Virus genome (UHGV): UHGV-0025827
Source of the DNA: a virus
Strand: one strand, 5' to 3'
DNA length: 59,104 nt
Positions within the stretch are counted from its first letter, which is position 1. Each line of letters starts with the position of its first letter. The notes under the pieces are model-generated. The model saw only the letters and a list, made by a program, of their open reading frames with translations. It was not told the origin of the DNA and ran no database searches. The position numbers and the translations under genes are program-made. Below are positions 1,024 through 58,275 of this stretch, piece by piece.

Positions 1024-1733
1024 TGGCCGACAAAGTAAACTACGATGCCCTGCGGACAAACCCGCAGGTGCAGGAGTTCCTGGGCCTGCTCAAGCAATCC
1101 GAGGGCACGGCTGGCAAGGGTGATAACGGGTACAACGTAGGCTTTGGCGGTAACCTGTTCTCCAGCTATAACGACCACCCGCGCCAGCGCAAGACGTTCC
1201 GGCAGACCGATGGCCGTAGCAATGTGACCACCGCAGCTGGCGCGTATCAGTTCCTCGGAAGCACCTGGGACGATGTGTCGAAGTCGCTCGGCCTAAAGGA
1301 CTTCAGCCCAGCGAACCAGGACAAGGCAGCTATCGAGCTTATCCGCCGTGGTGGCGCTCTGGACAACGTACTGACCGGAGACTTCCAGGGTGCGATCAAT
1401 AAGCTCGGCTCTACCTGGGCGAGCCTGCCCAGCTCACCCTACGCGCAGCCGAAAAGAACTATGAATGAGCTACTAGGTGGTGGTACTATGCCAACACAGA
1501 CTGTCTACAAGGATGGCCAGCAAATGGTCGCCGTACCGGAGACAGCCGGGGAACGCGAAAGCATGATGGCGTTCGACATGGCAGGGCACGACAACGCAAC
1601 GCAGTCTATGTTGACCAGCGCCCTGGCCAGAATCACCGAAGCACGGAACTCGCTGGTGACCGACGCCCCACTGTTCGAAGCGTACCCATCTGACCTGGAC
1701 AACCAGCTACTGGAATTGATTGATAGGGCATAA
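1023..1733 (+). CDS. virion-associated lysozyme-like / peptidoglycan hydrolase candidate
   Basis: 236 aa; motif SEGTAGKGDNGYNVGFGG...GAYQF..STW resembles the EGG...GG..G catalytic region of phage muramidases; lies immediately upstream of the giant virion protein. Confidence 0.5.
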   Translation: MADKVNYDALRTNPQVQEFLGLLKQSEGTAGKGDNGYNVGFGGNLFSSYNDHPRQRKTFRQTDGRSNVTTAAGAYQFLGSTWDDVSKSLGLKDFSPANQDKAAIELIRRGGALDNVLTGDFQGAINKLGSTWASLPSSPYAQPKRTMNELLGGGTMPTQTVYKDGQQMVAVPETAGERESMMAFDMAGHDNATQSMLTSALARITEARNSLVTDAPLFEAYPSDLDNQLLELIDRA

Positions 1734-1737
1734 TGTT

Positions 1738-4700
1738 ATGGCGAAAGCTCCTAACCTTTTCGGGCCAGCAGACTTCACGGGCGGTAATGCCGCCCCGATT
1801 GACGACCTGTTTGCCACACCAAAAACGGCCACTCCATCGACGGGTGGCCTTTCCGCATCTACGTCCGTGTCGCAGCGCATCATCAACCGGGCGACGACAC
1901 CGAAGCAGCCTACTCAAAAGCAACTCAAAGCACAGGCTGAAGCAGACCGTCAACGTCAGGTAGAGAGCGTGCGGCAGCAACTGCTCCAGATGCAGCAGTC
2001 ACCAGAGTGGGCAGGCGCTTCGCTTGACCGCCGCCGTGACCTGTACAGCAAATGGAAGGAGCAGAAATGGGACCCAATGCTCCGCTCTATTCAGGACAGC
2101 GATTTGCAGGAGGCACTGAGTATCCTCCCGGCTGAGACACTGAACGCGGACATTAAGAACCTGGAGCGTTCCATCTCCGACGCCAGCCGTCTGTCCGATA
2201 CCTGGCAGGGCGTGAAGGCGAACGCGCTCCAGACTGCACAAGGCATCGGTGACTATGCGCCTGCGGCGATTGACCAGGCTCGGATTGAGAACCTGCGCAA
2301 CATGCTGGCGATGGATGGCAAGCCGCTGGTGCTGGGCGGTGTCCCGCAGATGAATAGCGACGGCACACCGTTCATCCAGAAGTTCACGCCGGAACAGCGT
2401 GCAGAAGTCGAGGCGCAGATTGCCGAGCTGACTGGCTCCCGTAACGAGCAGATGAAGCAGGCAGCAGAGACGCAGAAAGATATCGACGCTATCCGCAACC
2501 AGCAGTCCATCGGCCAGATTGACCGTGACCGCGAGTTGCAGGAAGACATTGGTAACTACGGCGGCTTCGGCGGTACGATGCTCAACGCGCTGGCGCACCC
2601 ATCCAACGCACTCCAGCTGGCCACGGAACAGCTACCGAACGCAGGCGCTGCTATCGCGGCCACTACCATCGGTGGTCTGACTGGTGGCGCTCCTGGTGCA
2701 GTGGCAGGTGCTCGCCTGTCTGGTGGTCTTCTGTCCGCGCAGGATGCTATGTCCTCCGCTATCCAGCAGGTGCAGCAGATGCCAGCCGAACAGCTGGTGG
2801 CGCTGGACTCATACAAGCAGCTGGTGGCCCAGGGGCTTAACCCGGACCAGGCGCGTGACGAGCTGGCGCTCCGTGCTGGCTTCGACGCAGCCGGACTCGG
2901 CGCAGTGGTCGGTACTGTCACTGGTGGCCTGGGTGCTGAAGCTGGCCTGGGGCAGTCACTGTCCGCCATCCTCACCCGCGAGGCTGGCCCGGAAGCAGCG
3001 AGCAGTCTGCTGCGCACTGCCGCCCGTCAGTTACCAACCTTTGCCCGCGAGCTGGGTGTCGAAGGTCTGGAGGAAGGCGGCACACAACTGGTGGCCAACG
3101 TCGCACAGAACCGCCAGACCGGGAGCAACGTCGATATCCTCAACGATGTGGGCGAGTCCGCAGCGCAGGGTATCATCGCGTCCGCGCCTATCTCTGGCGT
3201 TACCGTAGCGCAGGAGACTTACCGTGCAGGAAGAAACAACGCCGCGCCTGCCGACGCCGGGGGAACTCCTGGTGTCAGTGGAGCGCCTAATGCTGACCAG
3301 AACACTGTCGCCCAGCCAGCTACAGGAGGTATTGACAATGAAGGAACGATCACCGTCCCGGATGCCACGCAAGCAGCCACCGCTGAACAGCCGTCAGCCG
3401 CGCCGGAAGCACCCGCCGAAGGTCAGCCCGCTGATACCAGTTCGCCAACTTCAGCGTTAGCGCAGCTGCGTCCTGTCTTCCAGGACATTAACAGCCGTGC
3501 GGGCCAGGCGTTCGAGGCTACCGAAGCCAACGCGTTCATCGACCAGCTCATCGCAGCTGAAGATAACGGTGCGCCCCGTAATGTTATTGAGAACGCACTG
3601 ACCAACATCACCCGCGTCGTGCCACCGGGCCTGGGCTACACCAGCATCCTGGATGGGTACAACCAGCGCCGCGCAGCCCGTGGCGAAGCAGCCGTGGATG
3701 AGATGGCCAGCGCGATTGTGACCAACGAGGAAGTCAACAATGGCACAACAGAACCTGTCACCGAAGCTGATAGCGGAAGCGCTGCAACTGTCGCTGACGT
3801 CAATAGCGCAATGGAAACCGCTACCGCAGCAAGCGAACCAGCTGCCACCACAGTACCTGAAGCTGCTCAGTCAGTTAGTGCAGAGCCTGAAGTCGCAGGG
3901 GTTAGCCGGACCGAGGGCGACAGTGCCGCAGAGAATGGCAGCACTACGCCAGCAGCTGAAACAGTGGGGGCTATTGACCGGGCCATCACAGCCGACAGCC
4001 GACCAGATAATCAGCCAGTATCCGACACAAGCGCGGCAGTCAGTGTTAGCGAACGAGTCGAACCTGGTGAGGCAAGACCGGGGCCAGCAGATGGTCGGAG
4101 CACAGACAGCGCTGCGGTTAGCGAGACGGGGCGTAACACTCGCGTAGGCGATACCGTTACCTATCAAGTCCCGGTGTTCGGGAACCACTTCACTGGTACG
4201 GTGACCTCCGTTAACCCGTCGCGTGCCACCTTCAGCATCCGCACTGACAGTGGCAACACGTTCGAGAACATCCCTATGGCCAACATCCGCCAGGAGCCGC
4301 TGACCGATTCGTTCGGCGACACTGACGTGCAGGCAGAGATGGCTCGTGACGACAACGCCGACGCGCTGGCGCGGGTGAACCAGGCTGTGGCCGATGGTCG
4401 TATGACCGCCGAGCAGGCAGAACGGCTGACACAGAACGCTATGCGCGAAGTCGAGCGTACCAATGACCGCTCCGCTGCTGGCGACTACATCACCGAACGG
4501 CTGAACCGCCTGGATGGCATCCTGCCAGAACGTCCGCAGGACTCCAGTACGATCACCCCCGGTGGTCGCGACATGCCTGCGCTGCGCGGTACTGCGTATG
4601 AAGCGCTGGGTTCGAAAGACCCTGCGTTGTTCCAGGCTGCGAGTGAGCTGACCAAGGCGCTGGTGAACAATGACCCGGTGGCCGCAGACAACGCGGCGCA

Positions 4701-7700
4701 GATTCTGGAGCAGGCAGGGTTCAACCGCGCCAGCCCAATCTACCAGGCACAGCCAGTGGCCAACCACGAGCAGGAACAGCTGGGCGTCACCAGTGCCCCT
4801 GGCCCTGCGGATGCGGCTATCATCCGTGACGCTGAAGCGAACACCACGCCGTCCGGGTACAATGCAGAGAACCTGGCAGCTCGTGCTGACCGCCTGGCAG
4901 AGAGTGACAGCGAGCACGCCTTCACTGGCATGGAGCTGTCCCAGGCGCTGGAGGATGGAGACTTTGTTAAGGCCGACGAGCTGGCACAGTATCTGTTCGA
5001 GCAGGGTTTGCGTCAGTTCCGTCCGCCGCAGCAGAGCACCGGACGCGCCGCCCGCACAATCGACGATGTGTTCCTGAACGAGCTGGAGCCTGCCGAACGT
5101 CTGGCGTTGCAGCGCGAGTACGCCGACATGGCTGACACACTGCCGCCTGAAGCAGATAGCTTCGCTGCATTCCGTGACACCGCCGTGCAGGACCAGCTGC
5201 TCATGAACGCTGGCGAGGCACCGAACTCCGACATTATGTTGCGCATGTCTAAGTTTGGCCGTGCGATCATCCAGAAGCTGGCACGGGCACTGGCCATCGT
5301 CCTGGCGGCAATCACCACCAACAACATGGTGCCTGTCAATGACGCGGTAGCTGCCACTGGCCAGGGCTATGTCCAGACGGTACAGCAGGTGCAGGGCTTG
5401 AGCCGTCCGGCCAGCGCTGTGAACTCCTGGGTACAGCAGAGCAAGGATAACGCAGGCCGTCCGTACATCATCGCTGACAAGCAGTCCGGCGAGATTCACA
5501 TCGTCGGTGCAGACGGCCAGGTGAAAGCCACGGCTCCTGCGCTGTATGGCCGCAAGATAGGCGATGGCATGACCATCGGTGAAACCCCTGCTGGTATCTT
5601 CACAATCCACCAGGAGGCCGCTCCTGCATCCTACGGCGGTGACCTGCAACAGTTCGCCACTGCACCGGACGGCGACGTGTACGCCATCCACCGTGTGCTG
5701 ACGAACAACAAACAGGACCGTCCTGGTCGCCTGGCCAGCCCGACTGCGGAAGACAACCGTATCAGCCTGGGCTGCATCAACATCCCGGCTGACCTCTACA
5801 ACAAGTACCTGTCCGGTAAGTTCGACGGTAAGCTCTATGTGCTGCCTGACCAGCGCAGCCTGGGTGACGTGTTCAAAGGTGTCGACGAGCAACGTGCGCA
5901 GCAGAACCTGACGCCGAGTGAGCAGATGCCAGAGAAGTTCGACTCCCCTGACGCGACGCAGTACCAGTCGAGCACCAGCACCATCGCCCCTGGCGACTTC
6001 CACGACACTGGCAGTAATGTTATGGACACTGGTGCGGCGGTGACCGAGGAAGCGCAGAACGGCGACATGTCTACGGCGACGGCGTTCACTGCCGCCCAGG
6101 GCAACGACCCGGCTGACAGCGGTATTGTCTATGCGGCGGCACTGCCATTCTTAGCGTTTGGCCGCAACCAGCGCCGTTCGCAGAAAGGCAAGAAGAACCA
6201 GTCTCCTGACCAGACGCTGGACCCGAACGCCACGCCACGCAGTGTGTCCGATAAGGACTACCACTCCGTTGACGCCGTGCTCGGTAAGCAGCAGTCAGCA
6301 GTGAATGACCAGCCTGCCCACAACGCATCACGCCTGGGCGACTGGACTGGCAAGCTGGCGCAGAAGCTGTCGGACTCCCAGCACGCGTTCATCTCCTGGA
6401 TGGATGACACTGGCCTCGTCCCTGCGAACGGCGAGCACGATGCACACGCTGCTATCTACGCGCTGAAGTCGCAGAACAACCGTATGCGCCAGCGCAACGA
6501 GGCACTGACGCAGCAGTACATGATGCCAATCTTCAACCACATCGTGTCTGTGGCCCAGCGTCTTGGCCGCAGCCCGGACCAGGTTGGGCTGGAGATGGGT
6601 TCATGGCAGACCTTCCGTCACATCCCGGAAGCGAACCGTGCCCTGCGCCAGAACCTGGAGAATGACCTGAACAACATCATCCTCACCGGGACCGAAGCAG
6701 AAGTGCAGGCCGCGCAGACTAAGCTGGCCACGTTCGACCAGGTGCAGAACGGCCAGGCAGATATCGGCGAGCTGCGTAAGGTAGGCGTGGGTGGTCTGGC
6801 TGGTGGCCTGACCGATGCCCAGGCACGAGCTGGTATCCAGAAGGTCGAAGCACTCGGCTACCGCCCGGAAGACCTGGCAGAGTTCCGTCGCCTCACCCGC
6901 GCCACCGTTGACGGTCTGGTGCAGGAGCGTGTGCGTAACGGCACGCTGCTCCAGGAGGAAGTTGACCAGTGGAACGCGCACGGCTTTAACGACTACGTGC
7001 CGCTGTACGTGAACCACGAACGCCAGGACGCAGGCAATGACGTGTACCTGGGCACCAGCAACTTCAACCCGGCTGGCGACTACACCCGTAATGGTTCTGT
7101 CACTCGCGCCAGCCACGCTATGATTACGTTGCAGCAGATGCTGTACCGGACGGCGGCAGGGATTGAGTCAATGCCATTTAAAGAGCAGCTGCACGCCATG
7201 TACCTGAATGACCGCCCAGCTGGTCTTCAGCGTGTGAACCTGGCTGACGCTCGCATGAACCCGCGCAGCGCTGTGTTCAACCAGGAAATCTACGACAAGC
7301 GTGGCTTCACCTACACCGTGCGCGGCGTGGATGAGAACCAGCAGCCGACCATTACCCGGTACAAGTATTACTTCGACGACGATGCGATCTCCCAGGGCAT
7401 CTTCGACAACCATGCAGAGCCGGACTGGAAAGTGGTCAAGCTGTTGAGCGGCGCGACTGCTGGCTTTGGCCGACTGCTGACGAAGTACAACCCACTGTTC
7501 CCGGTCAAGACCTGGTGGCGCGATGCTGGCGAACGTCGCCGCACACTGGCATCCCGTAAGATTACGGACTCCCAGGGCAACGTCATCCCGCTGCGCAAGC
7601 TGTACACGGGTATGATGGCCTCGCTCTACAACCCGGTACATGTGGCTAACCTCGGTGCTTATCTCATGACAGGGGGCCGCGCAGACACGCCTACGGTGCG

Positions 7701-9141
7701 TGCGTACCAGGAGCTGCAACGCCTGGGTGGTGTGTCCACTTACCAGCACGCGCTGGCGAAGTCTGTCACAGACATGCGCTCCACGCTGAAGTCCATGACC
7801 GGACTGCGCAAACACGCTAAGTCACTGGACCGCTTCTTCACCCACTGGAACGAGATGTGGGCGGCGGCTCCTGCGGTGGCTGGCTACATGGCGCTGCGGA
7901 ACATGGACGTGCCTGCCGACCAGGCCGCGTTCCGTACCCTGGATGTGATGAACGCCAGCAACAAAGGTGAGTGGCATGGCACGCTGTCTGTGTTCTATCC
8001 GTTCATCGCGCCGACCTTCGAAGGTGGCCGCAACATGCTGCGCAACCTGCGCTCGCGTCGTGGCCAGGCCATCTTCGCAGCGAACGTGGTGAGCAGCATC
8101 GCGCTCTACTCCATGCTCTACTCGCTGGCCAGCTCTATGGCCGGAGACGATGACGACCAGGGCAACCTGCTCGACAACATGAGCATGGATGACCTGTCCA
8201 TGAACATCCCGCTGATTATCGGCAAGAACGATATCATCAAGATTCCGGTAGCGTTCGGTATGTCCCGCGCATCCTGGATGATTGGTGCTGGCCTGCACCG
8301 CCTGTCTCGTGGCGTTGACACCCCAGGCAAAGTGATGGGTTCGACGACACTGGCCATACTGCGCGAGCTTCAACCTATCGAGCTGGAGACGCAGGTCATG
8401 TCCGATAATATTATGGCTGGCCTCACGCTCAGTGCCGCCCCGTCTATCCTGTCTCCGATGCTGGAAGTAGCCATGAACACCAACCACTTCGGTGGCATGA
8501 TTCACAGCAAGGCGGCACGAGAAGGGTTTGCCTCGGACGCTGCCATGTCGAACACGCCGCAGGTGTGGACCGATATCGCTAAGGCGCTGCGCAGCACCAC
8601 TGGCCTGGACACGTACCCGGAGAACATCCGCCATCTGTCCCAGGCATGGCTGGTAGGCCCGATGCGTGGCGTGAGCACCGCGCTGGAGAAAAGCTCGCTG
8701 TACACCACTGGCGGTAAGCTGACCTCCCGTCAGGAGATTGGCCCGGTGTGGGATGCTGTGGGTGTCGCGCAGTTTTGGGACAACGGTAGCCGTGGCGTGT
8801 CGCGCACGTACTGGAAGTACCAGGAGCAGGCAGATGACGTTCTCCGCAAGTATGGCCAGCTGCGTACCAAAGAAGGGACGAAGCCAGGCGATGCTGCGAC
8901 AGCTGCGTACCGCCGCGTTCTGGTAGCTGGTGGTTCCCCGCAGGAAGCTCTGCTGGTACAGTATGCTATCGAAGCAGACAAGGCTCGCGAGAAAGCGAAC
9001 CGTGAGCTGAAGGCCAGCGTGAAGGACTACAAACAGAAAGACCTTAGCCTGGAGCTGCTGAGTCCTAAGTACGAGCAGCATGTGGAAAGAGAAGAACGGA
9101 TGATGCGCGAGTTCATCCGCAGAGCGAGGGGGCTTAAATGA
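1738..9141 (+). CDS. giant virion protein (tape-measure or internal ejection protein) with an L,D-transpeptidase-like domain
   Basis: Uninterrupted 7.4-kb ORF (2467 aa from ATG 1738; the listed TTG at 1720 is rejected); Ala/Gln-rich helical regions; internal segment ...NRISLGCINIP... resembles a YkuD/L,D-transpeptidase catalytic Cys motif; start ATG is embedded in the motif CATAATGTTATG. Confidence 0.8.
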   Translation: MAKAPNLFGPADFTGGNAAPIDDLFATPKTATPSTGGLSASTSVSQRIINRATTPKQPTQKQLKAQAEADRQRQVESVRQQLLQMQQSPEWAGASLDRRRDLYSKWKEQKWDPMLRSIQDSDLQEALSILPAETLNADIKNLERSISDASRLSDTWQGVKANALQTAQGIGDYAPAAIDQARIENLRNMLAMDGKPLVLGGVPQMNSDGTPFIQKFTPEQRAEVEAQIAELTGSRNEQMKQAAETQKDIDAIRNQQSIGQIDRDRELQEDIGNYGGFGGTMLNALAHPSNALQLATEQLPNAGAAIAATTIGGLTGGAPGAVAGARLSGGLLSAQDAMSSAIQQVQQMPAEQLVALDSYKQLVAQGLNPDQARDELALRAGFDAAGLGAVVGTVTGGLGAEAGLGQSLSAILTREAGPEAASSLLRTAARQLPTFARELGVEGLEEGGTQLVANVAQNRQTGSNVDILNDVGESAAQGIIASAPISGVTVAQETYRAGRNNAAPADAGGTPGVSGAPNADQNTVAQPATGGIDNEGTITVPDATQAATAEQPSAAPEAPAEGQPADTSSPTSALAQLRPVFQDINSRAGQAFEATEANAFIDQLIAAEDNGAPRNVIENALTNITRVVPPGLGYTSILDGYNQRRAARGEAAVDEMASAIVTNEEVNNGTTEPVTEADSGSAATVADVNSAMETATAASEPAATTVPEAAQSVSAEPEVAGVSRTEGDSAAENGSTTPAAETVGAIDRAITADSRPDNQPVSDTSAAVSVSERVEPGEARPGPADGRSTDSAAVSETGRNTRVGDTVTYQVPVFGNHFTGTVTSVNPSRATFSIRTDSGNTFENIPMANIRQEPLTDSFGDTDVQAEMARDDNADALARVNQAVADGRMTAEQAERLTQNAMREVERTNDRSAAGDYITERLNRLDGILPERPQDSSTITPGGRDMPALRGTAYEALGSKDPALFQAASELTKALVNNDPVAADNAAQILEQAGFNRASPIYQAQPVANHEQEQLGVTSAPGPADAAIIRDAEANTTPSGYNAENLAARADRLAESDSEHAFTGMELSQALEDGDFVKADELAQYLFEQGLRQFRPPQQSTGRAARTIDDVFLNELEPAERLALQREYADMADTLPPEADSFAAFRDTAVQDQLLMNAGEAPNSDIMLRMSKFGRAIIQKLARALAIVLAAITTNNMVPVNDAVAATGQGYVQTVQQVQGLSRPASAVNSWVQQSKDNAGRPYIIADKQSGEIHIVGADGQVKATAPALYGRKIGDGMTIGETPAGIFTIHQEAAPASYGGDLQQFATAPDGDVYAIHRVLTNNKQDRPGRLASPTAEDNRISLGCINIPADLYNKYLSGKFDGKLYVLPDQRSLGDVFKGVDEQRAQQNLTPSEQMPEKFDSPDATQYQSSTSTIAPGDFHDTGSNVMDTGAAVTEEAQNGDMSTATAFTAAQGNDPADSGIVYAAALPFLAFGRNQRRSQKGKKNQSPDQTLDPNATPRSVSDKDYHSVDAVLGKQQSAVNDQPAHNASRLGDWTGKLAQKLSDSQHAFISWMDDTGLVPANGEHDAHAAIYALKSQNNRMRQRNEALTQQYMMPIFNHIVSVAQRLGRSPDQVGLEMGSWQTFRHIPEANRALRQNLENDLNNIILTGTEAEVQAAQTKLATFDQVQNGQADIGELRKVGVGGLAGGLTDAQARAGIQKVEALGYRPEDLAEFRRLTRATVDGLVQERVRNGTLLQEEVDQWNAHGFNDYVPLYVNHERQDAGNDVYLGTSNFNPAGDYTRNGSVTRASHAMITLQQMLYRTAAGIESMPFKEQLHAMYLNDRPAGLQRVNLADARMNPRSAVFNQEIYDKRGFTYTVRGVDENQQPTITRYKYYFDDDAISQGIFDNHAEPDWKVVKLLSGATAGFGRLLTKYNPLFPVKTWWRDAGERRRTLASRKITDSQGNVIPLRKLYTGMMASLYNPVHVANLGAYLMTGGRADTPTVRAYQELQRLGGVSTYQHALAKSVTDMRSTLKSMTGLRKHAKSLDRFFTHWNEMWAAAPAVAGYMALRNMDVPADQAAFRTLDVMNASNKGEWHGTLSVFYPFIAPTFEGGRNMLRNLRSRRGQAIFAANVVSSIALYSMLYSLASSMAGDDDDQGNLLDNMSMDDLSMNIPLIIGKNDIIKIPVAFGMSRASWMIGAGLHRLSRGVDTPGKVMGSTTLAILRELQPIELETQVMSDNIMAGLTLSAAPSILSPMLEVAMNTNHFGGMIHSKAAREGFASDAAMSNTPQVWTDIAKALRSTTGLDTYPENIRHLSQAWLVGPMRGVSTALEKSSLYTTGGKLTSRQEIGPVWDAVGVAQFWDNGSRGVSRTYWKYQEQADDVLRKYGQLRTKEGTKPGDAATAAYRRVLVAGGSPQEALLVQYAIEADKAREKANRELKASVKDYKQKDLSLELLSPKYEQHVEREERMMREFIRRARGLK

Positions 9142-11557: not shown

Positions 11558-14500
11558 ATTTCTCCAGGTCCATTTCCTCCGGTACGCGAATCACCCAGCA
11601 CTTCGCGGACACCGGAGGCAATGAGTTCACGCCCACTGACATACGCTTCGTCTTCTGGACATTCTCGACCAGGTGCTTGTTGACCACCAGCTCCGGCGTC
11701 AGGCCATGCTGTTTGCACCAGGTCCGCAGGTGGCCAGAACGGACGAACATCAGCCGCTCGGCCATCTCGATACGGATACCCAGGTCACCCACAGGGATGC
11801 GTCTCACATAGCTGTCCATGTGCGTCGGCATATCCATCTGGTTGGCGTTGTTCGCCGAGGAAACCATGAGGATATCGCGCAGGCTATCAGCCAGGTAATC
11901 GTTGAGGCAGCTCTCGATCTCTTTCTTCGACTCGACCATGCTGAAGCGCATCCGGCGAACCATGCCCATCGCATACTCAACCACCGCAGGAATGTCGATG
12001 TTGGTCAGGCCCATCGTGTTAGACAGCTTGGCGGCTACGACAGCCGCAGCGATGGTGTTCATCCAGTAGCGTTCGTCCTGGCTGGCGATGTGCTTCTCTA
12101 CCCATGCCGCCATCGCCTTCGGAATCATGGCCAGCAGGTCAGGGTTGTCCAGCAGGCGCTGAATGAATACCTCGCCAGCGTGGCCATAGTTCTTGTTCAT
12201 CGCCGCCGTCATCTCGTTCGCCAGCGCCGGAGCGATACCAGCCATGTCCACTTCGAGTTCCAGGACACGCTTAATCTCACCATCACGGTCACGGGACAGC
12301 GCCTGCATCTTATCGAAGACGGTGTTGTTCGCCGACATAATGGTGATGGTGGACCAGCTACCGGATGCCATCATGCTCTGGCCACCGTCAGACAAGCGGT
12401 CCTTCTCACGGCCTTCCGACATTTGGAACAGCATCTCTGACAGGTCCACGTCGCTCAGGTTGGTAATCTCGTTCAGACACACTGGCAGGTTGTGACGCAT
12501 ACCCATGATGGCGAAGCGGCTGTTCATCGTTGACTGGATGTTCAGCAGCTGTTCTTCCGGGTGGCCCCACACACTGTTCACTGCGTGCTGGAGTGTCGTC
12601 TTACCAGTACCGGACAGGCGTGACCAGAAGTTCACGATACCGTTCTTGGCGATGCCTGGCGCAAAGTTCATGAGTGGTGCCGCAAACGCAAGCGCGATAC
12701 CCATCTGGCCCCATATAATATTATGCTTCTCGTAAAACTGCGGCACTGCCTTCCAGCCGTCGAGCGAGCCAGCGGTGGTAACCTTGTGTTCGGAGTAGCG
12801 TTGCAGCCTGGTAGGTAGGGCAACTTCAGAACGCGGCTGGTTCGCAGACAGGATGCACTCACCTAACACGAAGGTGCGGCGTTCGTCGCCCTGCTGGTTC
12901 GTGGCCACAGACCAACCGAAGTGTTCGCGCATATCCATGCACGGAATTTTGCGCTGGAGTTTAGCGAGGTATGTACGCATACATTCAATGACCTTCTTCT
13001 CGTTGCCTGACGTTGGCAGCATCTGATTGTTGAACAGCCAGGTGCGGATAGACTGGTCACTACCGAAGTCTCTGGCCGACATGCTGGCCTGGCGAGGCTT
13101 ATCGAACGGGTTGGTAATCTGGAACATGTAGGTCATCTGCTGGTCTGTGCGTCCCATGTTGGTACGGACGGCGTACAGCAGATAGAAGCATGATTCCAGG
13201 ATGACCTTCTCTTTGCGGATAGGGTCGCCACCGTCAACGTCTTCTTCCCACACATGGACAAGCCCCTGGCCTTCGCGCATAACGAAGCGTGGGTCTTCCA
13301 GTGGGTAGGCGACGAACCCTTTAATGTCCAGCGTCTTCGCTGGTGGTGCTTTGATTGGTTCCTGGACGGCGATGACTTTGGATTCGACAGGAGCCGATGG
13401 GTCTGGCTGGGCCTGCTGGGTGCTGACTTCGCTGACCGGGATACGTCCCAGCTCCGCAGGGGTCACCACCTTCCCGAAGTACGGGCAGTTCACGCATACG
13501 CCTGGGTTGTTCGCGTCGAACGAACGGCAGGACGCAGGGCCGTTACTGCCATGCACCACATCGTGGTCGTACTTCTGGAAGAACTGCGCGTCGTTGTGGC
13601 GTGGGTCCGCAGCAGAAATCTCGCGTGCAGTCTCGCGGCCAGTCGGGCAGCAGTTCATCACGGTCATCATGTTGAACCAGTTCGGGTACAGCTGGGAGCC
13701 AGCCGTCGCGACCTGCTCGCAGTTACGCACGATACGGTCAGCGTCCTTGTTGCGCTCGGCCATCATCGCGTGACCCATCACCGCCTGGAAGTTGCCGTTG
13801 TTCCACAGCGCGGCCAGCACAGGGTTGTTCGCGATGTTGGCTGGTGCCTGGTTTTCCTGGCGCACAATGTTCACAGGCTTCACGCCGTTGGCCACAGCGT
13901 ATTGCTTCACCGCGCTGACGAACGCTACCGGGTCCACCAGCTTGAGCGGCGTCAGTGCCGCCACAGGCTTCAGCTGGCCATGCTTGTGGTTGTGCGTACC
14001 AACCGGGCGGAGTACACGCGCCTCATCGGTGGTACATTGTGAGTCGGTCAGGACGCCAACGTGCGATACAACGCCGGAGAACAGGCACGCTACCTTCTTC
14101 CACATGGCGGCAGAGATCGCCTTCTCCAGTACCCAATAGCAGTGGATACCGTTACCGGAGTTAACCACCAGCGGAGTCGGCAGACCTACTGTCTTAGTAA
14201 GCTGGACCACCGCCAGGCACGCAGCCTTCTGGTCCGGGTAGTCTTTGCCTACGCCGCAGTCCAGGTCGAGCCAGAACGACTTGATGGCCCTGGCGTTCTC
14301 CTGGGTACGGAAGACTTTCTTCGGCGAACCGTCAGCCTTCGTGCGTCCCATAGGGTCGTTGTGCCATCCCTTTTCAAATCCAGCCATCGCATAGAAAGCG
14401 TCCTGGCCATCGGCGTCGGCCTGCAAACAATACACCGCCACGTCACGCGGAGTGGACAGCGCCTTCTGTGATGGTTTGCGAGTAGCCGGGTCGATGGAAG

Positions 14501-16614: not shown

Positions 16615-18339
16615 CTACACTTCATTTGGGTCAACCGTAAACATGTCGTTGATTGCCTCGTTGATACTGACGCCCAGCTTGATGCTGCGGAACAGCTTGC
16701 GTTCCTCCGCACACGCTGACTGGTGGACAATCTGAATGCTGTCCGCCTTCTGCTTCAGCGAACTCATACGCTCCACCGCCTGCTGGTACACGAACTCGCC
16801 AGAGATCGGTGGCCCGTAGAACACCATCGTGTCCGCCGCTGCCAGCTCGACGCCGAACGCGGTAGTCTTCGGATGGCATAATATTACGTGCGGGTCTTTC
16901 TCGTTCTGGAACGCGTTGAATATCTGGTCGCGCTTCGCCCCGGTCACGCGGCCATCGACAACGCCGACAGTGTAGCCACGCTGCTTCAGGTGCTTCTCTA
17001 CCAGGTCGATGACTGCGGTGAAGGCACAGAACACCACCACCTTCTGCGTCGCCGACTCGATAATCTCCACCAGCCCGTCGATGCGTGACTTCACATCCAG
17101 CTCCACCACCGCGTCGCCCTCGGCCTTCACAACACCCTGGGCAATCTGTAGCAGTTTGAAGGTCAGTGCCGCCTTCGTCGGTGCTTTGATTTCCTCACCG
17201 CTCGTGGCAAGCGCCACCATATCCTCACGGATTTTCTTATACAGCTTCGTCTGTTCGGTAGACATGTCTGCGTCAGCGCCACGGTTCGTGACAGGCGGCA
17301 GTGTCATAATGTCTTTCTTATCGAAGCGGATGCACGGCTGCATGTGCTGGAATATCTTGTCCTTGTATCCCTCGCGTGGCACCCACTTGAACCCGAACTG
17401 AATCATGGTGGAGTCGCGCCATGCCGTGAACGACATGCTCATGTTCTGCGGCGTCACCAGTTTAATCTGGCCGTACACCATCTCCGGGTCGCCTGGCGTA
17501 CCCGTCAGCCCCCACACATACTCGACTGCCCTGCCATCCTTCAGACGGCGGCGGCGGTCCTTCAGCTTAACTGTCTCGCCCTTACCGTTCCTGATAGTTT
17601 TGCCTGGGGTAATCTCCCAGCGCGTCCCGTTCAGTACCTGGTCGGCGGCGTCCCACAGCTGGCTGCGGGTGTTAGCGTAGTGGGTCAGCTCATCCGCAAT
17701 AGCGATGGATATGCGGCCACTCTCTACGCACTTAATCAGCTCATCCTTTACGATCTTAATGCCATCGTAGTTGATGATATAAAAGTCAGCGTCCTGCTTC
17801 AGCAGCTCCCGGCGCTTGCGCGGGTCTTTGTGGTGAACCACAACCACCGTAGCGTTCGGATACATCCCCAGGATTTCCTTCTCCCATACACCGCGCAGGT
17901 TCGTCTTCGTCGCGATGCAAAGGCACCCCGTCACGAGGCGACGCTCCTGTAAGAATCTCGCGGCCACGATACCGCTGGCCGTCTTCCCGGTACGCATGGT
18001 GTTCGTGCAGTAGCCACGGCGATTTTCTGACAGGAACGCCGCCGTGGTTATCTGGTGTGGCATCAGTGGGAACTCGCCCTCTACCAGTGGTAGCTGGCAG
18101 GCGTGGCGCAGTATCTCCAGCCCACGGGTGTTGCAGTTCAGGTTACGCAGCAGCTGTAGCGAGTCCATCTCGTATGGGATGCCGACCAGGTGCATACCCT
18201 GGAACGGAGCCACACGACAATGCGATGGTGGAAAGCTGTTCTGGAAACGTAGCGCTTCCCGTACCTTCAGCACCAGCATCTTCTTGTTGGGCGAAAGGTA
18301 CGCGCCCTCCTTCAGACGCGTCCAGTCGTTAGTTACCAT
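16615..18339 (-). CDS. SNF2/DEAD-like superfamily-2 helicase
   Basis: About 574 aa; DExH box (IADELTHY), GLTGTP motif and helicase C-terminal features; ATG 18339 with GGGGAAG RBS. Confidence 0.8.
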   Translation of the reverse strand: MVTNDWTRLKEGAYLSPNKKMLVLKVREALRFQNSFPPSHCRVAPFQGMHLVGIPYEMDSLQLLRNLNCNTRGLEILRHACQLPLVEGEFPLMPHQITTAAFLSENRRGYCTNTMRTGKTASGIVAARFLQERRLVTGCLCIATKTNLRGVWEKEILGMYPNATVVVVHHKDPRKRRELLKQDADFYIINYDGIKIVKDELIKCVESGRISIAIADELTHYANTRSQLWDAADQVLNGTRWEITPGKTIRNGKGETVKLKDRRRRLKDGRAVEYVWGLTGTPGDPEMVYGQIKLVTPQNMSMSFTAWRDSTMIQFGFKWVPREGYKDKIFQHMQPCIRFDKKDIMTLPPVTNRGADADMSTEQTKLYKKIREDMVALATSGEEIKAPTKAALTFKLLQIAQGVVKAEGDAVVELDVKSRIDGLVEIIESATQKVVVFCAFTAVIDLVEKHLKQRGYTVGVVDGRVTGAKRDQIFNAFQNEKDPHVILCHPKTTAFGVELAAADTMVFYGPPISGEFVYQQAVERMSSLKQKADSIQIVHQSACAEERKLFRSIKLGVSINEAINDMFTVDPNEV

Positions 18340-19100: not shown

Positions 19101-19121
19101 GTCGTTTCTCCCACTATAATG

Positions 19122-23418: not shown

Positions 23419-23697
23419 TCACAGGTCAACGCGGCGAATAACCGCGTCCAGGTTAGTGATGACACTCTCCACTTCGCGCTCCAGCACACGGAGATCTTCA
23501 TACAGCGGAGACAGTGGTTGGTACGGAGCCTTCGGCGCTTCTGCACAGCCCACTGGCTCAGGGAGCGGCTCAAGCAGCACCGGGTTAATCTTCTGCACCA
23601 GCGCACTGGACACGCTGCTCAGGCTGTTGATTGTGTTGCGCAGACGGTCAAGCTGCTGCGCTACGTTACCCACTTTCATGTCGTTACATTCCATCAT
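23419..23697 (-). CDS. hypothetical coiled-coil protein
   Basis: 92 aa; start overlaps the ParB-like gene stop (ATGA). Confidence 0.5.
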   Translation of the reverse strand: MMECNDMKVGNVAQQLDRLRNTINSLSSVSSALVQKINPVLLEPLPEPVGCAEAPKAPYQPLSPLYEDLRVLEREVESVITNLDAVIRRVDL

Positions 23698-46351: not shown

Positions 46352-46863
46352 GCAGCATGATTGATACTGGTGGCCACTACACCGGGAGAGGATCGTCCTG
46401 TGACGACAACCGCCCGGTACAGGGCGAGCACCAGGTACTGTTTGACCAGTCCAGCACGTTCCTGCAATCGGGACTTATCATTGTACGTGCTGACCAGCCT
46501 GTGATGCTGGTAGCGTACATGGTCCCGGAGGGGGCAGAGTTCGTCGTCGAAGGTGTGAGCGTCGGTAGCCGTGCAGTCCAGCAGGGTGGCGGTTGTTGTT
46601 CTCCATGTGGTCCGACACTCATGGGCCAGGGCGCGGCGGACATTCGCTTCCGCGAGCCGATGGCGCTGGGTGGCAATACCTGGTCCATCAACCCGAATAA
46701 CCGCCGTCTGGTTATCACGCTGCCTGGCACTTACATGCTGGTGCTGAACGATGACCAGTATCTCGGCAGCGTTCACGTCGAGCTGGTGGAGCTGGGTAAA
46801 GTTAAGACCACCATCCCGGATGGGTATGTCGCGGGCCTTAATATTATGACCGCTCCGGTGTAA
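46348..46863 (+). CDS. hypothetical head-region protein
   Basis: 171 aa from ATG 46348 (GGGGAG RBS). Confidence 0.55.
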   Translation: MSSMIDTGGHYTGRGSSCDDNRPVQGEHQVLFDQSSTFLQSGLIIVRADQPVMLVAYMVPEGAEFVVEGVSVGSRAVQQGGGCCSPCGPTLMGQGAADIRFREPMALGGNTWSINPNNRRLVITLPGTYMLVLNDDQYLGSVHVELVELGKVKTTIPDGYVAGLNIMTAPV

Positions 46864-48586: not shown

Positions 48587-48760
48587 ATGGCAAGACGACC
48601 AATGGCAATGCCGCTCTTTGAGCCGACTTGTGATCGTCGTCAGTTCCTGGCCGAGCGGGATGAGATGCGTGAGATGGTGCGGCAAGACAAGCGTTGCCAC
48701 AAAATCAACACCCGCCCAGGTTTTCAGAAGCTGGCTAACATGAAATTCAATCGGGGATAA
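48587..48760 (+). CDS. small ORF (57 aa)
   Basis: Strong GGAGG RBS; below the 60-aa cut-off of the supplied track. Confidence 0.4.
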   Translation: MARRPMAMPLFEPTCDRRQFLAERDEMREMVRQDKRCHKINTRPGFQKLANMKFNRG

Positions 48761-48764
48761 TATT

Positions 48765-48920
48765 ATGGCTTGTGCAGCATGTGGTAACAAAGCGCGTCGC
48801 CCAATGCGTAGTACCGTTGGAAAACCCGTTAACCAGTCCCAGCCTGCTCGTTCTGGTTCCACCAGCAACAATGACCGTGGACGCAGCCGTGTGACTGGCT
48901 TGCGCTGGAACAGCAAATGA
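48765..48920 (+). CDS. small basic ORF (51 aa)
   Basis: ATG embedded in GGGGATAATATTATGG; Arg/Lys-rich; stop overlaps the next start. Confidence 0.4.
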   Translation: MACAACGNKARRPMRSTVGKPVNQSQPARSGSTSNNDRGRSRVTGLRWNSK

Positions 48921-50209: not shown

Positions 50210-51163
50210 ATGCCTGGCTTTAAATCTGCATCGGGTTATGGTGGCCTGGAGTCTACCCCGTTAGCGCAAATTGGTTATTACAACCAGATTATTGCGCAGG
50301 CGTGGGAGCGCGACTTCCTTCCAGAAATCACCAATACCGAAATCGACGAGCGTCTGACTGAGTGTAATCAGACGGTTCAATTCGTTCGCCAGCCGAAAGT
50401 CGGCAAATGGCGTCGTTACGAAAAGAACCAGGAACTGATCGCTAACCAGCTGACGCCTGAAGGCTTCACTCTGGAAATCTGCAACGCGGCGTACCAGGAT
50501 ATCAAAATCGACAAGATGGATATCAAGCGTGCGTGCGAACGCTGGTCTGCCTGGGAAGCATCATTCCTGGAATCCACCTACCAGTCTCTGACTGAGATGT
50601 GGCGTACCTGGGTTCTGACTGCGATGGTGCTGGAAGCCTCGCCGGAGAACAAAGGTAACAACGCGGGTATCCGTGGTGACGTACAGCTGGGACAGCCTGG
50701 TGCTCCGCTGACCGTGACACCGGACAACGTACAGCGTGCGTTTGCGCGTCTGCAACGTATCCTGCGTGACCGCCACCGTTGGGAAGAAGACAAGATGTTC
50801 GTCATCATCCCGACTGCACTGAAAGAAGTGCTGTCCATGTCTCCGTATGCACGCGCAGACTGGATGGGCGATTGCGTGTCCTGCTCCATGAACATCGACG
50901 GTCTACTGCCGCGTAAGCTGTGGGGCTTCAACGTGATTGAATCCACCTACGCGCCGACTGCTGTCGATAGCACTGGCGAGCTGGCGTACTACATCATCGC
51001 TGGTCACCGTGAAGCGTATGCCTTCGCCGCCGATATTATCGAAGGCCGTCTGGTAGAACCTTCTCGTACCTTCGGCGTTGAGTATCAGATGCTGGCGGTG
51101 TGGGGCGGCAAGGCGATCTTTGACGACGCCCTGGCGATTGGCTACTGGACCTTCGGAGAGTAA
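50210..51163 (+). CDS. major capsid protein candidate
   Basis: 317 aa; AGGAG RBS; position after the scaffold; part of the abundant-transcript block ended by the strong terminator at 51865. Confidence 0.55.
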   Translation: MPGFKSASGYGGLESTPLAQIGYYNQIIAQAWERDFLPEITNTEIDERLTECNQTVQFVRQPKVGKWRRYEKNQELIANQLTPEGFTLEICNAAYQDIKIDKMDIKRACERWSAWEASFLESTYQSLTEMWRTWVLTAMVLEASPENKGNNAGIRGDVQLGQPGAPLTVTPDNVQRAFARLQRILRDRHRWEEDKMFVIIPTALKEVLSMSPYARADWMGDCVSCSMNIDGLLPRKLWGFNVIESTYAPTAVDSTGELAYYIIAGHREAYAFAADIIEGRLVEPSRTFGVEYQMLAVWGGKAIFDDALAIGYWTFGE

Positions 51164-51167
51164 TATT

Positions 51168-51833
51168 ATGGCCGATGTAAAACTGTTTATTGGCGGTACA
51201 CCTAACCCGCTGTTCCCTAACCCGGATGGCCGTAACCAGTATCGTGAGCCGCACGCACGCCGTGTGGCATACGAATACGCGAACGGCGAGTTCACCCTGG
51301 GTTGGCCGCTGAACCCGAAAGAGCAGAACTACCAGCGCGTTGAGCTGGGTGACGCTGACCTGAAGGTAGGCGACTTGATCATGCTGTACGTTGTACCGCA
51401 GGAACACCTGCTGACCAGCGTACTGGCGCGTGTGGACGACATTGACGCCCGCTTTGCTGGTGCTACGCTGAAGCCTTCTGCGAAGCTGTACGACTCCGCC
51501 ACCGGAGAGTACACCGACTCAGACGTGCTTGACGCACTGTTCGACAACCTGACTCTCGTAGAGAAGCATGTTGCCTTCGCGCAGCTCAAAGCATCCAGCA
51601 TCACCATCCCGGCTGCGGATGTGAAAGCAACGGACGGCACTGTAGTTGGCCGTACCCCGGAGCAGACCATTACCACTGAAGGCGGTTACTTCGTACCGAC
51701 TGGTAAGACTCTGGTCCTGGGCTTCAAAGTCACTGCCCTGCCTACCGACACCACGCAGAAGTTCTCGCTCATGCAGGCTTCAGCTTCCCTGGTGGCGAAA
51801 GTGTCTGGCTTTGACATTCCGTCCGCTGTCTAA
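51168..51833 (+). CDS. head protein (decoration or second capsid component candidate)
   Basis: 221 aa; ATG embedded in GTAATATTATGG; followed by the strongest terminator in the window. Confidence 0.55.
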   Translation: MADVKLFIGGTPNPLFPNPDGRNQYREPHARRVAYEYANGEFTLGWPLNPKEQNYQRVELGDADLKVGDLIMLYVVPQEHLLTSVLARVDDIDARFAGATLKPSAKLYDSATGEYTDSDVLDALFDNLTLVEKHVAFAQLKASSITIPAADVKATDGTVVGRTPEQTITTEGGYFVPTGKTLVLGFKVTALPTDTTQKFSLMQASASLVAKVSGFDIPSAV

Positions 51834-53493: not shown

Positions 53494-54134
53494 TGGATGC
53501 CGTAGTGTACGACGCATACCCGAAAGTCGAGCTGTCAGTGTTCTTGCCGGAACTACAGCTCGAAATTCCAGAGCTGCCCGATGACATTCTTATGCACTAT
53601 GTCAGGAAGGCAGCGATTGAGTTCTGCGAACGCAGCCACGTATTGCAGCGGGAGATTACAATCTGCCTCCAGCAATGCGTGCCCAACTACCTGCTGGAGT
53701 CGCCAGACTGTACCCGCATCGTGAGCGTCAGTGGCATCTGCCGCGCCTGTGGTGCGCCGTATGAACGTGTGACGAGTAAGCCCTGCCACATCCCCTGCCT
53801 GAATCGTATGGCGTGGTGGGACCGTAACGAGGGAAGTATCTGGTTACACCCCGCGCCAGCGGAAGGCAGTAATATTATGGTTCGTGTATCTGTAGCCCCG
53901 GAGCAGGACGCCTGCGAGGTGGATGCCATACTGCATGATAAGTTCCACGAAGCCATCCTGGCAGGCGCACGCCATTTTCTGTACGCTATCCCCCGCAGAG
54001 CCTGGACCAGCCAGACATTCTCCGACAGCTGTCGGCAAGAGTTCGACAGGCGCATCGCATCGGCTGGCATTGACAGATTGTTTGGCGGGCAGCAGGGCAC
54101 TGTCCGCATGAAGAATATCTTCCACCGGAGGTAA
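53493..54134 (+). CDS. hypothetical structural protein
   Basis: 213 aa; ATGA coupling. Confidence 0.55.
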   Translation: MDAVVYDAYPKVELSVFLPELQLEIPELPDDILMHYVRKAAIEFCERSHVLQREITICLQQCVPNYLLESPDCTRIVSVSGICRACGAPYERVTSKPCHIPCLNRMAWWDRNEGSIWLHPAPAEGSNIMVRVSVAPEQDACEVDAILHDKFHEAILAGARHFLYAIPRRAWTSQTFSDSCRQEFDRRIASAGIDRLFGGQQGTVRMKNIFHRR

Positions 54135-57053: not shown

Positions 57054-57506
57054 ATGGCAGCGTGCAAACTGATGTGGTGTCCGAAAGACCCGGAGGAACT
57101 GGCGAAGTTCCTCACCGACGACTTCGGTCCACTTCTGGCAGAGCATTGGGACAAAGAGACAGCGCGTACAGGCGTGCCACACGGGCTGGATGTTCCGGCC
57201 TTCATGGCAGCGTGGGAGCAGCGTGGCGTGGCGCTCATCATGGCGTATGACGGCGATAAGGCGGTGGGCTTCATGCCACTGTATATCTTCCGTCCGCTGT
57301 TCATGATGGTGACCGCAGTGACCGTCGAGCGCTGGTACTCGCAGACGCTTGAGGCGGAGCAATCCATGTTCGACTATCTGGTGTCAGTGTTGCCAGTGCT
57401 CGGCGTGGACCAGGTGCATGTGGCCCAGCATAGTGGCCAGCGCATCCCGGCCAACGTCCCACTCGACAGCTCGGACCAATACCAGATGTGCAGACTGAAG
57501 GTATAA
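57054..57506 (+). CDS. hypothetical protein (150 aa)
   Basis: Coupled start. Confidence 0.5.
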   Translation: MAACKLMWCPKDPEELAKFLTDDFGPLLAEHWDKETARTGVPHGLDVPAFMAAWEQRGVALIMAYDGDKAVGFMPLYIFRPLFMMVTAVTVERWYSQTLEAEQSMFDYLVSVLPVLGVDQVHVAQHSGQRIPANVPLDSSDQYQMCRLKV

Positions 57507-57510
57507 TATT

Positions 57511-58275
57511 ATGGCTGTATTGGGTATCACCGATGATGGAGTAGTCACCGCCGCTAACCTCGCCAGGCTGGCGGCGGTTGCCGTTGCAGTAATCAACACG
57601 GCAGCTGCTATCGAGATGGCAGAGAAGCAGGAGAAGCTGGCTAAGAACTACCTCAAAATCGCGCAGGAACAGAACCAGTATTACTACGATGTGTATGTGC
57701 CTTGCGAAGATGCCGAGCTGGAAGAAGCCTGTAGTGCCGCCCTGTACGAGCAACACACTGACGTGCAGGTTGGCCGCTACAAAAACTCTGTGCGTCACGA
57801 CCTGGCCCGCCAGCCACAGAAAGCACTGGAGTGCTTGAGCCGCTACTGCACCGGGAAGAAGGCCGCGCTCATCAAGGATGCTGTGATGGCTGAAGCGCAG
57901 GCGCTGTCGGCGGCAGGTAACCTGGGGCGTCGGTACGAAGAACAGTACGCGGATGCGAAGGATGACCTGCGCTGGGCACGTCGCGCACAGGCACTGGCTC
58001 GTGGTCGTGACATGATGGCACAGGCTGTGAACTTCGCTGGCTTCGCGTATGGCCTGTTCGGCAGGCTGGGTGACCAGGCAGCGAAAGGGGCAGCAGGTGC
58101 CATTGGCTACCTGGGCTATGCGAGTGCGCGGAACGAGACTATCTATCCGAACCGTACTCCGCTATCTCGCCCGACGCAGCAGGCACCGCTTGGCGAATCT
58201 TACCCGCTCCCGCAGCCGGAGATTCAAACTATCCAGCCAGAGACTCCGCGTCCTAAACGCCGTATCAGGGGGTAA
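57511..58275 (+). CDS. hypothetical structural protein, paralog A
   Basis: 254 aa; ATG embedded in GTATAATATTATGG; paralogous to the next gene. Confidence 0.6.
   Translation: MAVLGITDDGVVTAANLARLAAVAVAVINTAAAIEMAEKQEKLAKNYLKIAQEQNQYYYDVYVPCEDAELEEACSAALYEQHTDVQVGRYKNSVRHDLARQPQKALECLSRYCTGKKAALIKDAVMAEAQALSAAGNLGRRYEEQYADAKDDLRWARRAQALARGRDMMAQAVNFAGFAYGLFGRLGDQAAKGAAGAIGYLGYASARNETIYPNRTPLSRPTQQAPLGESYPLPQPEIQTIQPETPRPKRRIRG

Follow-up and report, generated by a model that had tools for sequence, protein, structure and literature searches.

KorB acts at about 12 OB sites on RK2 and Noc at dispersed NBS sites, and these sites, like parS, are read by a ParB-family helix-turn-helix (HTH) protein encoded on the same element. 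Here we describe a 12-base AT-rich palindrome, CATAAT·ATTATG, that is scattered over UHGV-0025827, a phage genome of 59,104 bp and 57% GC analyzed at its full length (hereafter, the window). As with the KorB OB and ParB/Noc sites, the site is palindromic and recurs at dispersed positions, with a dozen or more copies per replicon of about 60 kb that lie at promoters in some cases and distant from them or within genes in others, and a ParB-family protein that might read it is encoded on the same genome. In contrast to those systems, about one third of the copies double as stop-start junctions, the spacing is significantly regular, there is no similarity to parS, and box II of the ParB-like protein is GEHR, not GERR. 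The phage-plasmid P1 carries 22 dispersed C1 operators, about one per 4 kb (PMC8546580), but these are asymmetric 17-mers (ATTGCTCTAATAAATTT) rather than 12-bp near-palindromes, and no C1 homologue was identified here. Given these analogues, together with the Cluster K SAS, the TACT/RTGMC motif and the phiEco32 gp36 motif considered below, the claim of an earlier reading of this window (the original prediction) that no phage signal of this form has been described is too strong; we would class the motif, provisionally, with the dispersed operators or loading sites, as a variant of that kind. A literature search for the motif string returned irrelevant matches only.

Scored as a 12-bp palindrome, the motif has no perfect copy in the window, 15 copies with one mismatch (0.05 expected) and 8 with two (0.5 expected), amounting to 23 loci at ≤2 mismatches against 0.55 expected; copies with three mismatches are at background level (11 versus 8.25 expected). 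The word CATAATATTATG at ≤1 mismatch has 15 matches against 0.01 expected, a number reached in 0 of 100 shuffles, ATAATRTTATG at ≤1 mismatch, with 0.46 matches expected, has 40 strand-matches spread over about 21 loci, and no other 10-mer in the window comes close to ATAATATTAT in over-representation. These counts bear out the over-representation proposed in the original prediction, all of whose listed coordinates were found in the window, although its list omitted a perfect 10-mer at 8405 and the sites 6014 and 38205. Two of its family members call for correction. The copy at 42016 is, like a site at 54963, a TTACG variant that is not conserved in relatives; given that a relative of about 77% nucleotide identity has synonymous codons in place of the TTACG look-alikes at 42016 and 54963, both are probably chance matches without function. 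The copy at 55419 is in a different register (ATAATGATTAT), with its ATG at motif positions 4-6. The junction at 55418-55430 (GGGGGCATAATGATTATC) reads as a one-base-longer, Fur-box-like palindrome, ATAAT-G-ATTAT, in which the overlapping TAATG is both the stop of 54137-55423 and the start of 55423-57051.

A search of related genomes, suggested in the original prediction, found the motif enriched in several of them. It is present in IMG/VR contig 100715 (about 95% nucleotide identity to the window), in IMG/VR contigs 076607 (c076607) and 104531 (about 77%), in a 58.7-kb ENA scaffold (L024, L028; portal 77%), in a 60.5-kb ENA contig (L031; PolA 70%) and in an Escherichia coli group (L023, L029; portal 66%, PolA 53%) that is also deposited as a circular 60,552-bp “plasmid,” pSTEC648_2 (CP061838.1). 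A further, more distant relative, represented by its late region only (L026; portal 50%), is largely devoid of the motif, with one perfect copy. In the relative L025/L030 (43% GC; portal 59%), the early-region locus has no motif and the late-region locus no perfect copy. Seven strand-matches were counted in each of L002 and L003 (0.2 expected) and 16 in the first half of pSTEC648_2 (1.2 expected), whereas the AT-richer L030 has none where 1.3 are expected. The enrichment in relatives and the absence from L030 therefore identify a clade-specific signal rather than a by-product of base composition, and the motif is a real, strongly selected, clade-specific feature.

Among the 15 sites alignable with the 77% relative, 9 are identical, compared to 12% of background 11-mers (P = 1.6e-5), and the imperfect sites 51168 and 53877 (GTAAT...) are perfect (ATAAT...) in that genome. 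The motif recurs in three relatives that are more diverged than this one, pSTEC648_2 among them. Within genes, PolA retains ATA ATA TTA, all rare codons, in three lineages and SNF2 reads (G/A)TA ATA TTA in four; conserved copies lie antisense in PolA, in DUF927 and in the small-terminase-like gene and out of frame in SNF2. Since unchanged sites are far above background and rare codons are retained inside genes, we conclude that purifying selection acts on the motif DNA itself. The sites are collected in Table 1.

Table 1. Motif sites in the window, followed by the genes and the control region mentioned in the text (c076607, L024, L028 and L031 are relatives named in the text)
Feature	Position	Strand	Context and conservation
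CATAATGTTATG	1729..1740	both strands read TTATG	TAA 1731-1733 is the stop of 1023-1733, ATG 1738 the giant virion gene start; same G-variant junction at the giant-gene start of pSTEC648_2
AGTAATGTTATG	6013..6024	+	Inside giant gene, ATG in frame; identical in 95% relative
GATAATATTATG	8404..8415	+	In frame within giant gene, read as D N I M A
TATAATATTATG	12714..12725	+	Antisense within DUF927 helicase gene; conserved in c076607, L031
CGTAATATTATG	16877..16888	-	Out of frame in SNF2, gene reading GTA ATA TTA (rare codons); conserved in c076607, L028 (perfect 12-mer there), L031
TATAATGTTATG	19115..19126	+	Intergenic, 16-26 nt upstream of minus-strand ATG at 19100
TATAATATTATG	21559..21570	+	Antisense within PolA, PolA reading ATA ATA TTA; kept in c076607 and L028 despite diverged flanks
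Composite CATAATCTTATG-GGGGCCGCAACCCC-CATAATGTTATG	25660..25697		Two copies flanking a GC hairpin and forming the outer stem of a 16-bp hairpin, between Cro/C1-type HTH gene (25693-25911) and toxin-like open reading frame (25391-25633), upstream of the operon ending in the ParB-like gene; conserved in c076607 and L031
AATAATATTATG	29556..29567	-	TAA is the stop of 29563-29901, ATG the start of 28668-29558; conserved
CATATTGTTATG	32133..32144	+	Two-mismatch variant at 3' end of gene 32140-32604; inverted-repeat arm with 32080-32092
GATAATATTATG	33616..33627	-	ATG starts 33055-33618; not kept in c076607
CATAATGTTATG	34995..35006		Within inverted repeat 34976-35037 (arms of 23 nt), preceding the first minus-strand gene (ATG at 34951) by 46 nt; not kept in c076607
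CATAGTATTATG	37592..37603		In frame inside gene 37283-37756; c076607 reads CATATTATTATG
CAAAATATTATG	38204..38215	+	Weak copy in gene 37813-39207; no alignable c076607 counterpart
CGTAATGTTATG	42123..42134	-	Antisense in small-terminase-like gene 41860-42423; conserved in c076607, L024
CTTAATATTATG	46837..46848	+	27 nt upstream of start at 46873; degenerate in c076607
GATAATATTATG	48756..48767	+	TAA is the stop of 48602-48760, ATG 48765 opens a 51-codon reading frame; conserved in c076607, L024
AGTAATATTATG	51159..51170	+	TAA is the stop of likely capsid gene 50210-51163, ATG starts 51168-51833; perfect ATAATATTATG in c076607
AGTAATATTATG	53868..53879	+	In frame inside 53493-54134; perfect in c076607
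TATAATATTATG	57502..57513	+	TAA is the stop of 57054-57506, ATG the start of 57511-58275
ParB-family protein	23694..24638	-	N-terminal ParB/Srx domain with GEHR box, then HTH
Giant virion protein, 2467 aa	1738-9141	+	LPD38 and YkuD domains
DUF927/SaPI-Rep-like helicase	11505-14570	-	
SNF2	16615-18339	-	
PolA	19854-22112	-	
Large terminase	42413-43876	+	
Portal	43876-45783	+	
Noncoding control region, 1.4 kb	34952-36362		GTAACC/GGTTACA iterons around AT-rich stretch

An observation new relative to the original prediction is that the copies are evenly spaced. On the circular genome, 20 loci are separated by gaps of 612-4721 bp (mean, 2955; coefficient of variation [CV], 0.38), and in 100,000 random placements, neither this regularity nor such a small maximum gap was ever reached. 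A weight matrix trained on the pSTEC648_2 sites alone recovered 20 window loci against 0.125 expected, with a CV of 0.43 (P<5e-5), and the partial relatives show the same 2.3-5-kb gaps. Since the four minus-only copies sit in the largest gaps between plus copies, the regularity is independent of orientation. Long genes contain internal copies: the giant gene has two, whereas DUF927, PolA and SNF2 have a single copy each.

T5, phiKMV-like and tf/LUZ24-like phages have localized nicks, and the original prediction had listed a site-specific nickase among the possible readers; in that case, the motifs would be recognition sites of a nicking enzyme, and virion DNA would carry a single-strand break at each copy. 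The TACT/RTGMC motif of tf/LUZ24-like phages is likewise short, occurs about 13-14 times in a 45-kb genome, keeps its position across 61 phages, contains RTG and is frequently located at coding sequence starts (PMC3517423, PMC11780129). The copy density here, about one per 3 kb, is similar, and single-orientation sites show a moderate one-strand excess (12:4 in the window and 7:1 in pSTEC648_2). The genome also encodes a protein with a ParB/Srx-fold N-domain, a PD-(D/E)XK nuclease and a small protein (18329-18724) in whose translation a GWPDF...EAK nuclease-like motif can be read by eye. However, known nick motifs are confined to one strand, nonpalindromic and unevenly spread (PMC11780129), whereas 4 of the 16 single-orientation sites here lie on the other strand, and the favored strand is opposite in pSTEC648_2 relative to the gene layout. 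In addition, the motif has no similarity to any known nick consensus. With the one-strand rule failing, we regard nicking as quite unlikely.

The 2-4.7-kb spacing is also on the scale of Okazaki fragments, and this, like the one-strand excess in each genome, would suit lagging-strand priming sites for a phage primase-helicase. The orientation of the motif, however, does not switch at the skew-defined origin (about 35.5 kb) and terminus (about 12 kb), the regular spacing needs the minus-only sites, and we know of no precedent for a general priming signal of 11-12 nt. A related thought is that copies nucleate an H-NS-type host nucleoid protein on a GC-rich genome. An AT-only 10-mer with several TpA steps, embedded in DNA of 57% GC, is a type of site that H-NS favors, and the AT-rich motif-less relative encodes its own H-NS-like protein (PF00816; L030 13406-13708, in the replication module). 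Yet the strictness of the flanking C/G and of each core base exceeds what H-NS would require. Priming and nucleation, taken together, appear very unlikely.

The original prediction emphasized that the ATG of the motif is frequently a start codon. Laid out as x-TAA-TRT-T-ATG, the motif holds a TAA and, 4 nt on, an ATG; at 1738, 48765, 51168, 57511 and 29558(-), the TAA is the stop of the upstream gene and the ATG the start of the next, and pSTEC648_2 has three such stop-start junctions, including the giant-gene and holin starts. Use of the ATG as a start codon holds at 1738, 29558(-), 33618(-), 51168 and 57511 and probably at 48765, which is just 5-6 of the roughly 21 window loci; in pSTEC648_2, it is 5-7 of 13. 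Over the window and pSTEC648_2, starts make up about 13 of 33 loci (chance estimate, <0.01). The other motif ATGs in the window open reading frames of only 5-31 codons. The Cluster K SAS is comparable in being a short conserved motif at the translation starts of many unrelated genes in one phage clade (PMC3203893), but that motif (GGGATAGGAGCCC) is asymmetric, contains a Shine-Dalgarno sequence, lies upstream of the start and occurs nearly always at starts in one orientation, whereas the motif described here includes the ATG and has only about one third of its copies at starts.

These junctions could indicate a function in RNA, be it an initiation or termination-reinitiation cassette (UAA-UAUU-AUG), an RNase site, an antisense-RNA target or a leaderless start. 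The ATG is invariant in the motif, its share of start codons is far above chance, the TAA doubles as the upstream stop at five window and three pSTEC648_2 junctions, most internal sense copies are in frame, and the hairpins at 25660-25697 and 34984-35023 present motif-complementary bases. The in-frame bias is nevertheless expected, because one frame contains TAA and another needs the rare ATA and TTA. Genes starting at the motif have a G-rich, Shine-Dalgarno-like run just upstream of it, which the nonstart copies lack, and the spacer to the ATG is about 9 nt at motif starts versus a genome median of 7. Since this G-run is kept at a stretched spacing, these genes appear to be read from run-through mRNA, with the motif worsening the initiation geometry. 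Several motif ATGs open reading frames of 5-13 codons, one pSTEC648_2 copy reads ATGTGA, conserved antisense and out-of-frame copies speak against a function in RNA, and the even spacing has no rationale at that level. For leaderless initiation, there is no -10 hexamer at the appropriate distance (6-7 nt upstream of the A), and positions -12 to -9 are GC-rich and not conserved. No Rfam family matched, and a search of the window for known RNA families and tRNAs found none. The translation-initiation element of the original prediction is thus disfavored, and an RNA-level function appears very unlikely. Rather, the association with start codons is probably a by-product: because the motif carries both TAA and ATG, a stop-start junction is the only kind of place that accommodates it at no cost in amino acids, and about one third of the sites lie at junctions. 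In the motif-less L025, the junction orthologous to 51159..51170 reads GGAGAGTAATATG and is 3 nt shorter.

To describe the internal structure of the site, CATAAT half-sites were tallied from the outside inwards (o1 to o6) over 56 loci from four genomes. Mismatches concentrate at o1 (24), at o2 (24, in most cases G for A) and at o6 (20, in most cases C for T), while the TAA core (o3 to o5) is nearly invariant, with 4, 0 and 5 mismatches, and the outer C is missing from both halves at none of the 56 loci. On sequence grounds, the motif thus looks like a site that is recognized half by half. The outer C:G is usually limited to one side in copies whose 8-bp core is perfect and usually present on both sides in central-G copies, which fits a rule of enough matches overall. 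A strictly one-sided, directional motif had been considered, and this idea was softened when the half-site tally showed that an apparent A-to-G bias came from orienting all sites by their better half. Fur box, Xer/dif half-site, sigma-28 -10 and galP-type extended -10 assignments were weighed by eye and dropped as inconsistent across sites.

Alternatively, the motif may be the -10 or initiation core of a phage promoter class without a -35, read by the host RNA polymerase alone or with a phage sigma-like factor; sigma-70 geometry would then place the transcript start on the G of the ATG or just past it. The motif contains overlapping TAnnnT hexamers (xATAAT, TAATRT, TATTAT), and every tolerated variant retains T2, A3 and T7. 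The G variant, TAATGT, equals the first six bases of the phiEco32 gp36 motif tAATGTAtA; the phiEco32/SU10 gp36 promoters are likewise AT-rich, phage specific and without a conserved -35, and the virion module here carries the SU10_adaptor family known from kuraviruses, which makes it a distant relation (PMC4281155, PMC12276001). The late promoter of phiKZ is TATG, with the G as the start site (PMC5312081). In pSTEC648_2, copies precede functional modules: the first late gene by 40 nt, the small-terminase-like gene by 91 nt and a toxin-antitoxin operon by 149 nt, with further copies at the holin and giant-gene starts, and other copies lie 12-46 nt upstream of starts.

Several observations speak against such promoters. 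Among 78 aligned sites, neither a -35-like element nor any other information was found beyond the 12-14 nt of the motif, sigma-70 consensus scans remained at chance level, and the count of -10-like hexamers was unremarkable. No RNA polymerase, sigma factor or gp36 homologue was found with Pfam, PHROGs, NCBIfam and phmmer or among PDB sequences (phmmer with gp36, E>1), although a very divergent factor could escape these searches. Initiation at or after the G would remove the start codon from about one in three associated genes; for the 7.4-kb giant gene, which is one of these, 7 kb would be left untranslated. A location upstream of genes in sense holds for the start and intergenic sites, but about one quarter of the window sites are antisense and yet conserved, and over the window and pSTEC648_2, nonstart sites number about 10 sense to 6 antisense, so that there is no orientation bias and an initially suspected sense-strand bias is gone once start-codon sites are set aside. 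Palindromy and even spacing are not expected of promoters either. Compared to phiEco32, with about 6 promoters, all before genes, there are at least 20 copies here, antisense and intragenic ones included, and the 3' half reads TATG rather than ATA. The original prediction had argued that placement on ATGs leaves too little room for a conventional -10, which is fair for leaderless starts only. A promoter role is possible but, on balance, doubtful.

What remains as our tentative preference, held well short of confidence, is that the motif represents dispersed binding or loading sites for a dimeric DNA-binding protein of the phage. We favor this reading, which the original prediction had raised in a KorB/ParB-like form, because of the palindromy with its half-site profile, the orientation-free spacing, the codon-costly conservation and the position of the strongest copies at control regions. 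Such copies are the double site 25660-25697, the site within the inverted repeat 34976-35037 and the two perfect palindromes of pSTEC648_2, which lie in intergenic DNA upstream of late and packaging genes. The regulatory placement that the original prediction assigned to G variants was confirmed for the inverted repeat around 34995-35006, the hairpin 25660-25697 and the site 19115-19126 upstream of the 19100 ATG.

Apart from the motif, what the window and pSTEC648_2 have in common is limited to structural genes, the replication core and two further proteins, the ParB-like protein and an HTH protein of 99 aa (14623-14922). These two are the only evident DNA-binding proteins among the shared genes, and the ParB-like protein makes the leading candidate for the reader. 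Its assignment, proposed in the original prediction, is supported by weak matches to Pfam ParB_N and HTH_ParB, by PHROG 1033 (1.7e-36) and by structure matches to Spo0J (1vz0; E = 4.6e-10) and Noc (6e-4), and the protein is conserved in all relatives. Its recognition helix is SEGTVANHLLLA or SAGDVANHLLLA where the motif is present and SRTHVDQMLLLA in the genome that lacks it, and box II aligns as VDGEHRVRA (GEHR, not GERR) in motif-bearing genomes. A search for homologues of this helix in unrelated elements returned this clade only, and no gene limited to motif-bearing genomes was found, all shared early genes being present in the motif-less relative as well.

Under this preferred reading, a phage-encoded dimeric protein would recognize two CATAAT half-sites, one copy being kept about every 3 kb over the whole genome. 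The ParB-family protein would occupy these sites, or use them as loading points from which to spread, and would thereby act genome-wide, either silencing lytic operons or organizing or partitioning a plasmid-like prophage. Away from junctions, the motif would be written into coding sequence at a cost in codons. It is tempting to go further and to speculate, although we consider this version rather unlikely, that about 20 evenly spaced parS-like loading sites, engineered into stop-start junctions and, where needed, into coding sequence, allow clamps that slide a few kilobases to cover, silence or organize the entire 59-kb genome.

A number of points weigh against these proposals. The link between the ParB-like protein and the motif is circumstantial: the genome that lacks the motif happens to be the most distant relative as well, and its helix difference may reflect phylogeny alone. 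Canonical parS (TGTTNCACGTGAAACA) is absent from the window, with one three-mismatch match, below chance; parS, OB and NBS sites span 13-16 bp and are mixed in composition, whereas the site here is 12 bp with an AT-only core. With a GEHR box II, CTP-dependent clamping appears uncertain, and the iterons at 35.6-36.05 kb offer an alternative target for the ParB-like protein. The AT-only block with overlapping TAnnnT hexamers is also promoter -10-like. Perfect TAATATTA core sites have the outer TG on exactly one side in 11 of 12 cases, which would fit a directional element as well as a rule that one good half-site is enough. Finally, spacing of the pSTEC648_2 sites at ≤1 mismatch is not significantly regular (CV, 0.77; P = 0.27), and weaker matches fill its gaps only in part.

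If the sites are indeed read by a ParB/KorB-like protein, a partition-family protein would exert whole-genome control over a phage, and the genome would provide a natural system for the distance that a clamp travels from its loading site, gaps above about 4.7 kb seemingly not being tolerated. The motif also exemplifies a DNA signal reconciled with coding, in that it brings its own stop and start codons. If it is a promoter or nick site instead, it would simply add one more ordinary example to those kinds. The clade is uncharacterized, and pSTEC648_2 and E. coli assembly contigs with close gene relatives make experiments feasible.

With regard to the genome as a whole, the 95% relative aligns unbroken over the end and start of the window, which is therefore a complete, circularly permuted genome. 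Late and structural genes occupy the plus strand in an arc that starts at about 36.4 kb, passes the window end and reaches 11.5 kb, and replication and early genes, among them the PD-(D/E)XK nuclease, occupy the minus strand from 11.5 to 35 kb. A search for near-identical phages gave no close match in 50,697 phage records, and phage matches at the protein level are distant only (Rhizobium RHph_TM3_14A, Pseudomonas phiR18/KPP25 and HMO-2011-type phages). The gene content of pSTEC648_2 comprises a full podovirus-like virion module, holin, lysozyme, PolA, ParB, RelE/ParE-HigA and ArdA. The PolA protein of a relative gave 24 blocks with contigs of the 50-200-kb size class among the contigs read, and the retrieved examples of PolA-bearing contigs are E. 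coli assemblies. The circular plasmid deposit, the E. coli contigs and the ParB, toxin-antitoxin and ArdA genes carried by the relatives' elements point to a plasmid-like prophage lifestyle in Enterobacteriaceae, and pSTEC648_2 and its kin are probably an unrecognized phage-plasmid group.

Next to the double motif and hairpin, the minus-strand frame 25391-25633 (80 codons from ...AAAGGGCAATTGATTATGG) is the gene that the original prediction called RelE-like; L031 carries a ParE_like gene at the matching place. Two alignment-block breakpoints with relatives, at 19112-19129 and 25640-25653, fall at the motif sites 19116 and 25661. They hint that the sites might mark boundaries of exchanged modules, but amount to only 2 of about 20 breakpoints. 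Within the control region, a 27-nt direct repeat (GCAYTACTTAACGTTTCCGCTTCRTGC) occurs in two copies 37 nt apart (35086-35149), and at 35640-36047, GTAACC/GGTTACA iterons such as TGTAACCGTGTAACCG and two copies of GGTTACAAAGTTACA flank an AT-rich stretch (35800-35860). The iteron region looks like an origin or centromere and is a candidate target for the DUF927 helicase or the ParB-like protein. The 401-aa core protein encoded on the minus strand at 14935-16140 matched nothing in family searches; its long Q/P/V-rich tail ending in DDGAFA gives it the look of a single-stranded-DNA-binding protein with an acidic tip.

Other words are enriched as well. The enterobacterial Chi sequence (GCTGGTGG) occurs 27 times in the window (13 plus, 14 minus; e.g., 2793-2800, 2820-2827 and 45199-45206) against 4.05 expected and a maximum of 10 in 100 shuffles, compared to zero copies in pSTEC648_2. 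This suggests that the host is an enterobacterium with RecBCD and that Chi has been selected for in the window's lineage only. The second most enriched word family is RTGCCGCC, with 33 copies over both window strands and no clear orientation bias; GGCGGCA has 58 copies in the window versus 18.7 expected, and a related word, ATGCCGCA, has 34 versus 6.8 expected in pSTEC648_2 and L023, mostly co-oriented with genes. L026 carries a palindrome of its own, GTGTACAC, seven times in 17 kb (3074-17076; about 0.6 expected), all copies being intragenic, and a gene with collagen-like CAAGGTCC repeats.

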